A stretch of 64,000 nt of DNA from a virus. Taxonomy: Duplodnaviria; Heunggongvirae; Uroviricota; Caudoviricetes. Within the stretch, counting starts at the first letter, position 1; every line of letters starts with the position of its first letter. Made by a program: the position numbers. The DNA is taken from the IMG/VR virus record IMGVR_UViG_2703718822_000010; one strand, 5' to 3'. Positions 1-6,000 of the stretch are shown here, piece after piece.

Positions 1-3000
1 TCAGTTGATTGATGTACGTCGCATTTTTCGAAGGCTGGCAATATGCATTTCCTTCTCAATTTCCGCTTTAATCATGTGTAGTTCGTTGTGGTCGACTCGC
101 TCAAATTCTTCATTAAATGCACCAATTGAAGTGGCTCGGGTTCTGCCGTCGAGTCTTCGGTAGATCACCTGAGTAAGAGTTACCTTGCAGATTTCCACCG
201 GATAGTTGTTGGCATCGACGAAAGACTGCCCGCGCTGGATCAGGACGAACACTGGTTATATTCCTGGTGTGCCATATCATAAACACGGCGTGCCGTGAGG
301 TATGTTGTGGTTAACGTCGTCCGTATCCAGAAACATCCCCGGGTTGTGACGGTCATTTCCGGTACTTTGAACTTCAGTGCATCAACGATATGCTGGTGCT
401 TTCGGCATTCGAATAGCGAACTGGTGATAACAACACTTGCTGCCGAACCATGACTTTCAAATGAAATATTCATATATGAGCACCTCGTTGTTACTGGCTA
501 TCGCCATTGCTCCCCAAATACAAAACCAATTTCAGCCAGTGCTTCGTCCATTTTTTCAATGAACTCCGGCACCATCTCGTCAAAACCAGCCATGTATTTT
601 TCATCCCGCTCGACCACGACATAATGCAGGCCTTCACGCTTCATGCGCGGGTCGTAGTTGGCGAAGTACCAGGCATCTTTTCGAGTTACCCACATGCTGA
701 ATTGCACTTGGGCCATGTAAGCTGATTTTATTGCCTCGAAACCACCGAGCCGGAATTTCATGAAATCCCGGGAGGTAAACGGACATTTCAGCTCAAGGCC
801 GTTGCCGTCACTGCATAATCCATCCGGAGAGCAGGCGGTACGCATACTTTCGTCGCGATAGATGATCGGGGATTCAGTAACATTCACGCCAGAAGTAAAC
901 TCAAACAGGGCTCTGGCGTCGTTCTCGTACTGTTTTCCCCATGCCAGGGCTTTGGCGTTAACTTCCGGGGCCACACCCGTGCAGACCTCAGCCAGCAGGG
1001 TGTGGAAGTAGGACATTTTCATGTCAGGCCATTTCTTTCCGGAGCGGGGTTTTGCTATCACGTTGTGAACTTCTGAAGCTGTGATGACGCCGAGTCGTAA
1101 TTTTTGCCATGCATCATCTCCCTGTTCGACATTGTTTATGTCAATACCTGTGCGTTGCAGGATAATTTCTGGTGTCATGCTGCCACCTTATGCTCTGTGG
1201 CTTTCTGTTTAAGGAATCCAAGAGCCTTCTCTGCTTCGGCCTGGGACAGTTCTGACAACGCTCGAATGTCGCGGCGAAATATCTGGGAACAGAGTGGTAA
1301 TAAGTCGTCATCCCATGTTTTATCCATGGAGGTAAGCAGACCGTTAATTTCCTGCATGGTTTCACCATTAACCGGGGTGATGTCGCGTTCCGGCTGACGT
1401 TCTGCTGTGTATGCGGTATTTTCGACAATGCGTTCGGCTTCATCCTTGTCATAGATACCAGCAAATCCGAAGGCCAGACGGGCACACTGAATCATCGCTT
1501 TATGCCGTAACATCCGTTTGGGATGCGACTGCCACGGCCCCGTGATTTCTCTGCCTTCGCGGGTTTTGAATGGTGCGCGGCGACATTCATCCATCCACTC
1601 GGTAACGCAGATCGGGTGATTGCGATCTTTGCGGTAAATCCGGCATGTACAGGACTCATTGTCCTGCTCAAAGTCCATGCCATCAAACTGCTGGTTTTCA
1701 TTGATAATGCGGGACCAGCCATCAACGCCAACAACCGGAACGATGCCGTTCTGCTTATCAGGGAAGGCGTAAATTTCTTTCGTCCAGGGATTAAGGCCGT
1801 ACTGGTTGGCGACGATCAACAATGCGATAAATTGCGCATCGCTGGCATCACCTTTAAATGCCGTCTGGCGAAGAGTGGTGATTAGTTCCTGTGGGTCGAC
1901 AGAATCCATGCCGACACGTTCAGCCAGCTTCCCTGCCAGCGTTGCGAGTGCTGTACTCATCCGTTTTATACCTCTGAATCAATATTAATTTGGTGACGGG
2001 CGATGGTTTCAGCCATGTAGCGGATGTGTTCTGCCATGCGTTCCTGAAAATCGACATCGTCATCAAATGCTCGGGTAATGGCCTGTTTGCTGGCGCCACA
2101 GCGTTGTAGGTTATCTATGCAGAGCGATTCAAACAGGCGCTGGGGCAGTCCTTTTTCCAGGTCGTCCGCCAGCTCTGCTTCAGTTTCTTCACGGGCAATT
2201 TGCTGGTGGTGTCGTGCCCATGACTGATCTTCAATGCGATCGGGGATAAGCCAGGCATTCACGATTCATCACCTCCGAAATTTCCAAGGCGGTTGGCAAT
2301 CATGATTGCGATATCAGGGATTGCTGGCGCTGTTGCTACGCATGCAGGGTTTGCGCACAAACCATAGACGGCTGCAAGCACGAGTTGCCTTTTCCAGTCG
2401 AAATCTGCTTGCTCTGAATCATCATTATTGTCAGAAGCATCACTATCTGGAGCGATGTGAACAACCGAATCGTGTTCCTGAGTTGTATCAACAGCATTTT
2501 CCTGAATGTATTCATTCTTCATTTGCGCCTGGTCATCTCCATCAGTGGTCTCATTTTCTCCAAAAGTTTCAGCGTAAGTTTCATCTCCCATTACTGGACC
2601 ACAGTCAGGGCAATGCCCGCCACTGTTCTGACCGCATGCGGTGCAAACCTTTTCCACTTCCTGTTGCATTACTGGCCCAGGCTGTGGCTCTTCCGGTCCG
2701 TTTTGTTGCGTATCCGGGCTGTTTTGTTCCGCTTCTGGCTCATTTTGTTCCACTTTGGATTGATTCTGGTCCTCAGTGTCGCGAGTCTGGCTCCCCTTCA
2801 CCCACTTCGGGTCGGTTGGGTCGCTGATACCTTCAACGAACTCCCTACGAGAGGCAGCCAGCAATTTGTCTGTATCGACAGGATTTTTGGGTGGAATGTT
2901 TTTCCTGGCTTCATAGAGTTCTGCACGCAGTTTTTGATATTTCGCATCAACAGAATTTATCTGTGGCTGAGCATCCATCGACTGCGTGTCCTGATTATGT

Positions 3001-6000
3001 TCAGTTGTATCCGGTTCCACTGTTTCAGTCGTTGCCTGTTCATCTGCCATTGCGCCAGATGGCTGCGGTTTTTCTTCATCATCCTGTTTTCCTTCTTTTG
3101 TTACACGCTGCGGTATCGGGGCAGAGGAGCGACCGCAGGCAATATCCACGATTTCCGGATCAGGGGTGGCATGATCGGTTTCGGTCAACACTTTGTTGAG
3201 ATATTCAGTCACGCGCGCCGGGATAGCCTCAATGCCGATTGGTGCTTCTTTCACGGAAGCCACCACAATGGCGCGGGAATAATCCAGCCCACCGGGCATG
3301 GCGATGAATTTGTCACGGAAAACAGAAAAGGGCGGTTTATTCTCTGCAACGATTTCTTCAACGCGTTTTGCATGTGCAGGGTGCAGGTTATAAATATCCA
3401 CATCCATTGAACGGGCCAGAACGCCAGTGGCAATGTCTCGCGCCAGTGATGCCTGATTGTGGGTAAAGCCTTCGCCACGATCGGTAAGATTTCCACCGCC
3501 AGCGTTAGCACCGGAAGGCGTACGGGTGATGCCTGTAACACAATTTCCTTTCTGCCATTCTTTTGTCAGCAATCCCTGATCCACATAGTCTGTTTTCATC
3601 CAGGTGGAGATGAACTTGTCGAATTCGGCCGGGCCGATATGACGGGTTGTTGAGTGAGAGAATGCCTTTCCAACGGATTGTGCCAGTCTTCCCAGATGAT
3701 AATTCGTCAGCTTATCCAGTTCTGGATGTGAACGCACAGCAGTAAGCAGGCTCTGAAGGTAACTGTCTTCTGTGTCCATCTCCAGACGAATCACCTGATT
3801 ACGTTGTTCTGGTGTGGCGTGATGCCGGTATTTTCCATCTTCATCCTTGCTGAAGAAGAAGAGGTGAAGGAAGCGATGAGTAAGGCTCAGAGTGGCGACG
3901 GGCATTTCACACTCAGAACAGTCATCGTCGCTGTCCGGGGATTCGCTTTTCTCCACATCATCCGGAATAGTTCCGTCCGGGTCATCGTTGTCATCGCCAG
4001 CGGTTGTGGCATCTTCACCGTTGATGTTGTCATTGAAGGGTATAGCCATCATGGTGATGCCATCTTCCCCGCCTTTTTCATAGCGGTTGCAGAATTCAGT
4101 ATCAAACACGCCTTCCGGTGGAAGGTCATTCACGACGGGGAAATTTACGCGAACGGGTTTTTTGAAATCATCCTCGTCGTAGCCTGCATCGTCCATGGCT
4201 GCAATGCAGCGGGAAACTGCGACAGAAAGTTTTCTGGCATCAGCCCAGAAAAAACCGCCTTTGATGCCAAGGCGTTTTCTGACTTTATCGTTTTTTGCTT
4301 CGCAGTGCAGTGCAAAAGTTTGTTTATCAGCGCTCATTGTATTTAAACCTCTGGCTGGATTAGAATTAGCGGCCCTTTGTCTGATTTCTCCGAATACAGT
4401 GACGCAGGGGGTAGTCCGGTAGCCTGCGCTGCCGGATTTTTTATTTCAGTGCAAGGTTGCCTGGTTTGTTGTTTTGCGAGTTGTTTTTTTCTTTTCATGC
4501 TGGCAGTCAGAGCAGTTGCATTCGCCATTTTCTCTGAGAAGTTGAAGTGCCAGGGTCAGTTCCTGAATTCTTTGTGGATCAATATGACTGTCGACAATTT
4601 CAGATGCAGCATGAATATATGGGCTGGTGGTTTCGCAATATAAACCGAAGGAAACAAAACGACTGTCCTTATACTCGTTAATTGCGATTTCTGTTAGCTC
4701 TGAAAATGAAAATACATAATCTATCTGGTGTTTTTTGCATATTTCATTTATGCGTTCTGCAATTTCTTTGAGTTCATTTATTGCATCAGGACTGGTTTCG
4801 GAAAATATTTCATTTTGCGCAAGTTCTTTCATTTTGATTTTTCCGTGATTGATAATTAATGCGGTTATTATTCCGGCTTGTTTGTTACAGATATGGAAGG
4901 TGTATTTTATTACTCGTCACCACGACTCCGCTTTTACGGGTAAGCCATCGCGCCCGATGAAAACTTTAATCATGCAGTCGGTAATGCATGTTTTTGTTGT
5001 GAAGTTGCGAATATAGAGTTTTCTCTTTTCAATATTGTTTGCTGAAGCGATATATGTGCGGCCTTCATGAAGAACATAATCGCCAGGTGTCACGCACTGA
5101 CGTGGTATTTCATCAGTTCTGAAGTGATGAGCAATCATAATTATCTCCATTTTCACAAATGAACTTTGTTGATGCGGTGCCTGGTGCCTCCAGGTGACGT
5201 TAACCAGTTAACAATTAACGCCGGGTCAGGGGACGATGACTTTCCGTGACATCCTGTCCTGTCGGTTTAACTGTTCCGCGTGCGCTGAGCCGCATTCACC
5301 GCATCACAAAATTCACTTTAAAAAAGGGCGGATATCAGCCAGCAATTAAACTGATATCCGCCAATGACTACACACAGCAATGTTGTTATTCACAACCGGA
5401 AGCGCACGGTCGAAGAAATCTAACGACAAGCCTTCAAAGGGAAAGAGTCTTCGCCGTGCGCTTTCGTGTTGCACCCTGGCTTTTCAGGGTAATATCTGTT
5501 CAGTAAACTGACAGTGCCGGATGCTCACCCGTGTCCGGCGCACGAACTCCACCTGACCCGTGGAGAACTCCTCAACTACAAACCCCGTAAGGAGAGTGAA
5601 TTTATGACACAAGAAGAAAAAGTGATGTTTCTGATGCGGCTGGCTGTCGATACCTACAACACACAATTCAGGGAGAAAGATATACCTCAAAAGGCAGTTC
5701 CTGCCGCGGTAGATAAGGGCGGTGCTATTGCCGTATTTTACGATGCATTTGAATCATTTTTTGATGAAAAACTCGATGCTGTTAGCGACTTCGGAACATC
5801 GAGTAATAAATAACGTTCATTACGGTTCTTAAACAACAATCAGTGGGCTTGATGTTGTTCTTTTCAAGCTCACTTGCCATCACTTCCATTATTCTTGCGC
5901 TTACACGAATTATTTGGTGGCTGTAAGCGACGCAACTGTCGCTGATATTGCTGTTTATTTCTATTACTTCATTTTCACCATTAGCATCAACTTCGGATGC

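Follow-up and report, generated by a model that had tools for sequence, protein, structure and literature searches.

A RecE-family gene without a nuclease domain precedes gam, bet, and exo in the early-left operon of a lambdoid phage

RESULTS

The 692-amino-acid protein corresponds to the N-terminal region of RecE without its nuclease

We analyzed a 64,000-nucleotide stretch of DNA (the window) from IMG/VR record IMGVR_UViG_2703718822_000010, a virus assigned to the Caudoviricetes, and concentrated on the gene at 2259..4337 on the minus strand, which begins with ATG and encodes a protein of 692 amino acids (aa; 76 kDa, pI 4.5). By sequence comparison, the protein corresponds to RecE (exodeoxyribonuclease VIII) over its first ~595 residues, lacks the nuclease, and ends in an acidic linker of 50 residues and a hydrophobic tail of 47. 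The gene is followed by the lambda-type recombination genes gam, bet, and exo.

A preliminary description of the window had been unable to assign the protein to a characterized family; profile searches and BLASTP placed it as a homologue of the N-terminal ~600 residues of RecE. The NCBIfam model for exodeoxyribonuclease VIII, NF007259, scored 792 bits and aligned over profile positions 1 to 592 of 877 only, short of the full-length match of at least 1269 bits that defines the equivalog. The phrog_607 profile aligned over positions 1 to 616 of 883, and Pfam PF06630 (Exonuc_VIII, the RecE N-terminal region) matched aa 54 to 197 with 47 bits (cutoff, 25). BLASTP against RecE of Rac-SA53 gave 65% identity over aa 51 to 594 and ~90% over aa 250 to 594, followed by nothing; the shared region corresponds to RecE aa ~43 to 570, with none beyond. 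Alignments also revealed the features that mark the family, a helical core with an SGxxAGG..TDR loop and the motifs MDFDIY, PGxLDYSRA, and LTExDH.

The PD-(D/E)XK nuclease domain PF12684, present in K-12 and Rac-SA53 RecE, had no match in the 692-aa protein or its close relatives. The one RecE structure that has been solved, that of the nuclease (3H4R; residues 605 to 866), was likewise unmatched, while the K-12 RecE control matched it with an E value of 3e-180. Pfam gave no match to the DEDDh domain PF16473 in the protein, and recT is absent immediately downstream, where gam, bet, and a lambda-type exo are found instead. We predict that the protein lacks 5′-3′ double-stranded DNA exonuclease activity. 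The match to RecE is, formally, the homology to a well-characterized family that the preliminary description had set against its own account of the gene; however, it covers the part of RecE that reviews call "of unknown function," and the characterized nuclease domain is missing. As that description stated, the protein has no assigned biochemical function.

NCBI lists an identical protein, encoded on 456 contigs, under the name "RecE family exodeoxyribonuclease." Orthologues carry the label "exodeoxyribonuclease VIII" or "exonuclease VII" in the Shigella phages 75/02 Stx and POCJ13 and in the Escherichia phages PhiR5_2 and phiSTEC1589-Stx1c. Copies covering at least 80% of the query occur in 97 of 5,426 complete E. 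coli genomes. Hundreds of homologues for a 692-codon open reading frame (ORF) exclude a chance feature. The database name is unsupported by the sequence. That the protein is an active exodeoxyribonuclease VIII, as the GenBank and RefSeq names and the strong though partial matches to the corresponding profiles would suggest, is effectively refuted by the truncated, subthreshold NF007259 alignment, the missing nuclease domain and structure match despite a working control, and the end of RecE similarity at aa 594, after which the last 98 residues form a disordered linker and two helices.

Folded parts of the protein are separated by acidic disordered linkers

The acidic, multidomain organization given in the preliminary description was borne out. 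The protein contains 10.3% D, 8.1% E, and 6.8% T and carries a net charge of −60. A charge map assigned −9 to −15 to each of four linkers and near neutrality to the folded parts, which argues that the protein is not a bulk DNA binder. The central globular region proposed earlier at aa ~230 to 480 stood in part: a folded core exists, but AlphaFold puts the folds at aa 1 to 100 and 141 to 410.

The N-terminal alpha/beta domain (aa 1 to 100; 4038..4337, minus strand, as for all segments given here) contains the start of the PF06630 region. It is followed by an acidic disordered linker (aa 101 to 140; 3918..4037; net charge, −15; predicted local distance difference test [pLDDT] score, <50), which is poorly occupied in the family alignment and ends in C140-x2-C143. 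The conserved all-helical core (aa 141 to 410; 3108..3917) has a Gly-rich loop and the motifs MDxDIY, PGxLDYSRA, and LTETDH. In the family alignment, conserved polar residues were few and formed no catalytic-looking constellation. PDB sequence searches with the 692-aa protein, with a profile of the core, and with one of the tail found no match; the ~270-aa core is an unrecognized fold, without recognizable relatives among solved structures.

Beyond the core, a variable acidic disordered linker (aa 411 to 460; 2958..3107; pLDDT, <50) leads to a segment (aa 461 to 515; 2793..2957) with AlphaFold helices at 462 to 479 and 489 to 496 and the short motif R-x-E-F-V-x-G-I-S-D-P-x-D-P-K-W at aa 497 to 512. 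The motif residues are invariant in the RecE-family alignment and recur in the distant members called type B below. A Q/E/N/P-rich disordered linker (aa 516 to 560; 2658..2792; pLDDT, <50; net charge, −9) precedes the final RecE-homologous segment (aa 561 to 595; 2553..2657), a zinc-ribbon-like CxxC-x7-CxxC motif formed by C565, C568, C576, and C579. These are the two CxxC pairs noted earlier; C140/C143 is a third. The four cysteines are invariant across the compared RecE, DEDDh, and nuclease-less forms, although the segment gave only weak zinc-ribbon Pfam hints (E value, 0.04) and a low pLDDT. The last two segments are an acidic disordered linker unique to nuclease-less forms (aa 596 to 645; 2403..2552; pLDDT, <50) and a C-terminal two-helix mini-domain (aa 646 to 692; 2262..2402), here called GLCANP after its central residues.

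The RecE N-terminal region defines a modular family

A search through all of 1.84 billion cluster representatives returned only 218 relatives at E ≤ 0.001, which indicates a small, enterobacterial family. The helical core was detected in most of the 150 family representatives listed. Among representatives of at least 450 aa, the core was combined with a PD-(D/E)XK domain in 18, with a DEDDh domain in 11, with the GLCANP tail in 20, and with other short helical C termini, or none recognized, in 23. Nuclease-less proteins make up roughly half of the long-representative diversity of this RecE N-terminal module (N-module) family, and RecE is therefore better described as an N-module plus a nuclease than the reverse. 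Our literature search found no published description of nuclease-less RecE-module members or of the GLCANP tail.

Rac prophage RecE (K-12, 866 aa; Rac-SA53, 1048 aa) and the 692-aa protein have the N-terminal ~570 to 600 residues in common, including the helical core (about 85 to 90% identity over aa 250 to 410), the PF06630 region, the RGEFVxGISDPxDPKW motif, and the CxxC...CxxC element, and their genes occupy the same operon position, after kil. In Rac RecE, the N-module is joined to the PD-(D/E)XK nuclease (PF12684; PDB 3H4R) and recT is next, whereas the 692-aa protein has the GLCANP tail and its gene is followed by gam-bet-exo. The first ~50 residues of the 692-aa protein are of the sequence type of the DEDDh fusions, not that of Rac RecE.

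In O157:H7, O111, and other E. coli prophages, the same N-module is joined to an Rv2179c-like DEDDh 3′-5′ exonuclease (PF16473; E value, ~1e-67) in proteins of ~810 to 850 aa named "exonuclease" or "3′-5′ exonuclease" (e.g., WP_000102174, WP_000102185, and WP_047670681). These fusions are identical to the 692-aa protein over the first ~100 residues, share the zinc ribbon, and are 47 to 72% identical overall; unlike it, they carry a C-terminal PF16473 domain, and xis-int comes straight after their genes, without gam, bet, or exo. One module fused to two unrelated exonuclease folds (PF12684 and PF16473) constitutes a Rosetta-stone type link to DNA-end enzymes. Three Pfam matches suggesting N-module-RecT fusions were disregarded; the one inspected (P0124) is an internal deletion of K-12 RecE-RecT that joins the zinc ribbon to mid-RecT.

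The C-terminal tail is the best-conserved segment among distant relatives

The tail stands at the C terminus in place of the nuclease domain of RecE. In relatives with a core identity of only 25 to 45%, it is the best-conserved segment, with the motif (L/S)T(Y/F/W)(R/K/Q)QQLTIAAL(Q/Y)G(L/M)CANPA-x5-(D/E)(D/E)(I/L)PxMAxxLA, in which A, A, G, N, and P are invariant. Twenty distant representatives and 80 viral loci carry the motif, and the tail is 77 to 95% conserved among 112 variants of the 692-aa protein. The pattern that sets apart the nuclease-less subgroup, a C-terminal ...QQLxxAAxxGLCANP-x(6-8)-(I/L)PxxAxxxA... with no nuclease domain, lies at aa 648 to 685 of the protein, starting at W648. 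AlphaFold modeled helices at 648 to 662 and 670 to 685 (pLDDT, 56 to 73), and Pfam and PDB searches found no relative of the tail.

Three cyanobacterial metagenome-assembled genomes contain stand-alone ORFs of 65 to 68 aa with the tail motif (MEGHHLDKIGFRQQLIIAAVQGLCANPTQ...) in three different chromosomal contexts (L024, 115-399; L025, 1525-1731; L026, 4583-4780), which suggests that the tail is an autonomous mini-domain; a match to phrog_26058 had an E value of 1.9e-4. One of them adjoins a 299-aa ORF whose N-terminal KGGVGKTT looks, by eye, like that of a ParA/Soj-type ATPase.

Two other accounts of the tail were rejected. A MAFFT alignment had suggested a degenerate DEDDh N terminus, but the local score, 24, was no better than that of shuffled sequences (mean, 24.2). 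Nor do translation signals for gam, or linkage to it, explain the conservation, as distant proteins keep the motif without gam next to them. The short "tail-only" representatives P0246 and P0255 resemble pieces of genes broken by frameshifts.

Tail variants P0122, P0130, and P0132 (and the fragments P0246 and P0255) are ~9 residues longer and end in ...DDEHIPDF or ...SDERLPDF, reminiscent of the C-terminal tip of E. coli SSB (DFDDDIPF). This extension is absent from the 692-aa protein. Three DEDDh fusions (L005 to L007) end in ...QADF.

Folded parts and tail are under purifying selection

Reading frame and length (660 to 705 aa) were kept in the 112 variants, down to 75% identity. Nonsynonymous-to-synonymous (pN/pS) values were calculated as pooled Nei-Gojobori ratios from seven genes in 21 nonindependent pairs. 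The ratio was 0.30 for the whole gene, 0.16 for the core (aa 231 to 410), 0.25 for aa 466 to 595, and 0.20 for the tail (aa 641 to 692; pS, 0.25). The two acidic linkers had ratios of 0.62 to 0.69: 0.69 for aa 411 to 460 (identity among the 112 variants, 0.38 to 0.64) and 0.62 for aa 596 to 645 (identity, 0.43 to 0.54). Folded parts and tail are under purifying selection, and the linkers are relaxed in sequence.

The gene is translationally coupled to gam in the pL operon

The gene order on the minus strand is the 692-aa gene, gam (1966..2262; 98 aa; GTG start; PF06064; E value, 8e-61), bet (1175..1960; Red-beta, a RecT-family annealase; PF03837; E value, 4e-33), and exo (498..1178; lambda-exonuclease/YqaJ family; PF09588; E value, 1e-29). 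The actual recombination nuclease of the phage is the lambda-type Exo, not the 692-aa protein. The junction with gam reads ...GGAGGTGATGAATCGTGAATGCC: the TGA stop codon (2261-2259) of the 692-aa gene overlaps the GTG start codon (2262-2260) of gam as GTGA, and a GGAGG Shine-Dalgarno sequence sits within the last codons of the upstream gene. This 4-nucleotide overlap was kept in 7 of 7 related loci examined, which agrees with the coupling proposed previously. A kil homologue, N-like and Nun-like genes, and a gene for a CI-type repressor lie upstream; together with gam-bet-exo downstream, they mark this as a lambdoid early-left (pL) operon, where the preliminary description had placed the gene. 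A RacC-like identity for the upstream 128-aa ORF was rejected.

The 108-nucleotide gap between ORFs 4446-4832 and 2259-4337 contains an 11-bp GC-rich hairpin (4413-4438, plus strand) followed by TTTTTATTT, oriented as a plus-strand intrinsic terminator, i.e., against pL transcription. A 61-aa ORF (4343-4528; phrog_29463; E value, 8e-44), unannotated in related phage records, overlaps the hairpin.

Tail-bearing genes occur in two genomic contexts

We surveyed gene context in the 80 viral loci carrying the tail motif. About 40 were of type A (E. coli-like, as in the window), all with gam immediately next, followed in most by bet-exo. In at least two of them, gam is followed by a 365-aa AAA_24 (PF13479) protein in place of bet-exo, from the family that contains Sak4-type annealases; in one, an IS66 insertion lies past gam. 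On viral contigs L080 and L089, the AAA_24 gene is at 6442-7539, with an integrase gene then at ~7.9 to 8.1 kb.

About 35 of the 80 loci were of type B (Citrobacter/Enterobacter-like; phrog_26058), 0.5 to 0.9 kb upstream of xis-int. Type B proteins (~500 to 640 aa; prophages of Citrobacter, Lelliottia, Cedecea, and Buttiauxella) have a helical core 25 to 45% identical to that of the 692-aa protein, the GLCANP tail, no nuclease, and often the RGEF...DPKW motif, and each is encoded by the last large gene of its pL operon. They differ in having another type of N-terminal domain (MSVELK...) and, in many cases, an extra helical domain in place of the zinc ribbon. Variable small ORFs and then xis-int follow type B genes, with no gam or recombinase gene nearby, whereas the window gene has gam-bet-exo. 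A constant small partner gene downstream of type B genes was sought and rejected, as the small ORFs there are of four or five different types. Loci L009 and L014, from related prophages, carry a gene for a eukaryotic-type Ser/Thr protein kinase (PF00069; 348 aa; 1371-2450) in the immunity-proximal pL region, upstream of N.

Other features of the phage

The Stx1c phage phiSTEC1589 matches the late region at 99.4% identity. At ~20399-24051, features labeled "Shiga toxin I subunit A" fall within the matches to phiSTEC1589-Stx1c and 75/02 Stx, which places the window in a Shiga toxin 1-converting phage; the ORF at 20399-21355 (318 aa) is a StxA candidate by size alone. In the pL operon, a Nun-like termination factor ORF (7241-7594, minus strand; phrog_5632; E value, 2e-69) lies downstream of an N-like antiterminator ORF (7548-7985, minus strand; phrog_271; E value, 5e-31), with a 47-nucleotide overlap. 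Nun replaces N in HK022, and the presence of both types of gene in one pL operon looks unusual. A 238-aa pL-operon protein (6173-6889, minus strand; phrog_2539, no function assigned) contains a central CxxC...CxxC segment (aa ~100 to 150) that matches the zinc-binding portions of PHROG families of the Lar-like, endonuclease VII, and HNH types (E values, 1e-9 to 1e-6); many related loci encode this protein, as a 237-aa ORF, ahead of the RecE-like gene.

DISCUSSION

What is new here is the architecture of the 692-aa protein and what that architecture says about its family; the protein sequence and the RecE family were already known, and this is not a new system. Reviews describe the RecE N-terminal region as dispensable for basic recombination, as enhancing linear-linear recombination, and as of unknown function (PMC11611040, PMC11610958), and a study of the O157 Sakai prophages counts "Exo VIII-type proteins" among recombination systems (PMC2669165).

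The explanation that we favor, although tentatively, is that the protein is a noncatalytic adaptor working with the Gam-Bet-Exo (or Sak4-type) module. It is translated from the pL transcript at the head of a coupled series of N-module, gam, bet, and exo. In trans, it would do what the RecE N-terminal region does in cis: as an adaptor or scaffold, it would make the recombination enzymes of the phage more effective in end processing and annealing. Its folded domains, peptide motif, and tail could be protein-protein docking sites, with the tail substituting for the covalent link to a nuclease. We lean toward this adaptor role because the module is fused to two unrelated exonuclease folds, the gene is coupled to gam and recombinase genes in this lineage, purifying selection acts on the folded parts and the tail, and full-length RecE has a published linear-linear recombination phenotype. 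Genomic context also provides points that weigh against it. Within ~7 kb of the core-plus-tail genes that directly precede xis-int in ~35 viral loci and 7 enterobacterial genome loci, we found no gam, Red-beta/RecT, lambda-Exo, RecE-nuclease, or DEDDh gene (Erf, Sak, and Rad52-like proteins were not searched for), and the DEDDh fusions also directly precede xis-int, with no annealase. The N-module can therefore function without an adjacent phage recombinase, and adjacency to gam-bet-exo may merely represent a conserved lambdoid "recombination slot."

The main rival, which we consider possible but somewhat doubtful, is that the protein acts autonomously as a host-directed hub or inhibitor whose core, peptide motif, and GLCANP tail bind one or more conserved host proteins, e.g., a nuclease, a replisome component, or a defense factor. 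The long acidic tracts may then serve as a DNA-mimicking decoy, with nucleases fused secondarily and recombination not the primary role. Such a role is consistent with the share of nuclease-less forms among long representatives (about half), the many members that stand alone before xis-int with recombination genes not nearby, the beads-on-a-string architecture with its acidic linkers and net charge of −60, and the pL location beside kil and gam; that the tail is the segment most conserved between distant members would be expected for a conserved host target. On the other hand, the protein is unlike any known inhibitor by sequence or fold, and its linkers change fast in sequence. A search of PADLOC-DB, a library of defense rather than anti-defense proteins, matched 0 families at E ≤ 1. 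The repeated exonuclease fusions and the tight coupling to gam and recombinase genes in the E. coli lineage favor a DNA-end context.

Alternatively, the protein could be a membrane-tethered factor of the exclusion or lysis-timing type, anchored by its hydrophobic C terminus. The hydrophobicity noted in the preliminary description is real, with a 19-residue Kyte-Doolittle maximum of 1.70 at aa 652 to 670, a borderline value for a transmembrane segment, and the neighborhood includes kil and, in other phages, sieB. However, the segment consists of two short helices (15 and 16 residues) flanking a Pro-rich turn, the motif is amphipathic and Q rich in distant homologues (YRQQLTIAALQGLCANP...), and the protein has no signal peptide and is otherwise very acidic and cytosolic in character. 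We consider a membrane anchor improbable; the segment is a conserved two-helix mini-domain of soluble type, too short, and in homologues too amphipathic, to span a membrane.

We strongly disfavor the view that the gene is a functionless, decaying leftover of an illegitimate recombination event in which a lambda Red module took the place of recE(3′)-recT and the ORF read on to the next stop codon: the mosaic structure, the abrupt end of RecE homology right past the zinc ribbon, and deletion derivatives in the family (P0122, without most of the core, and P0124, the RecE-RecT deletion fusion) are compatible with it, but ORF length is kept (680 to 700 aa) across the 112 variants, pN/pS is 0.16 to 0.25 in the folded parts with abundant synonymous change, and conservation of the tail extends to other genera and to relatives with only 25 to 45% identity. 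A modest share of the probability falls outside the readings considered here.

In prophages of E. coli and Shigella and in Stx phages, hundreds of genes carry a nuclease name without a nuclease domain. A RecE-type recombination system is wrongly inferred from the gene name in such phages, in which lambda-type Exo is the real nuclease. For recombineering, the question of what the N-terminal ~600 residues of RecE do dates back to the finding that the full-length protein boosts linear-linear recombination and permits direct cloning. A natural, selection-maintained, nuclease-free version of this region adjoins lambda Red in the phage described here, which makes action in trans with Red, and a need for the tail, directly testable, and the helical core and the GLCANP mini-domain are reasonable targets for structural and interaction studies. 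More speculatively, the RecE N-terminal region might be an autonomous phage family with an undescribed helical fold, consisting mostly of nonnucleases, that engages a conserved bacterial factor as a hub through the GLCANP mini-domain and the RGEFVxGISDPxDPKW motif; the nucleases would be secondary fusions and the stand-alone form would act in trans, possibly in host takeover or anti-defense. If so, the RecE and DEDDh fusions would deliver a nuclease to the target of the hub.

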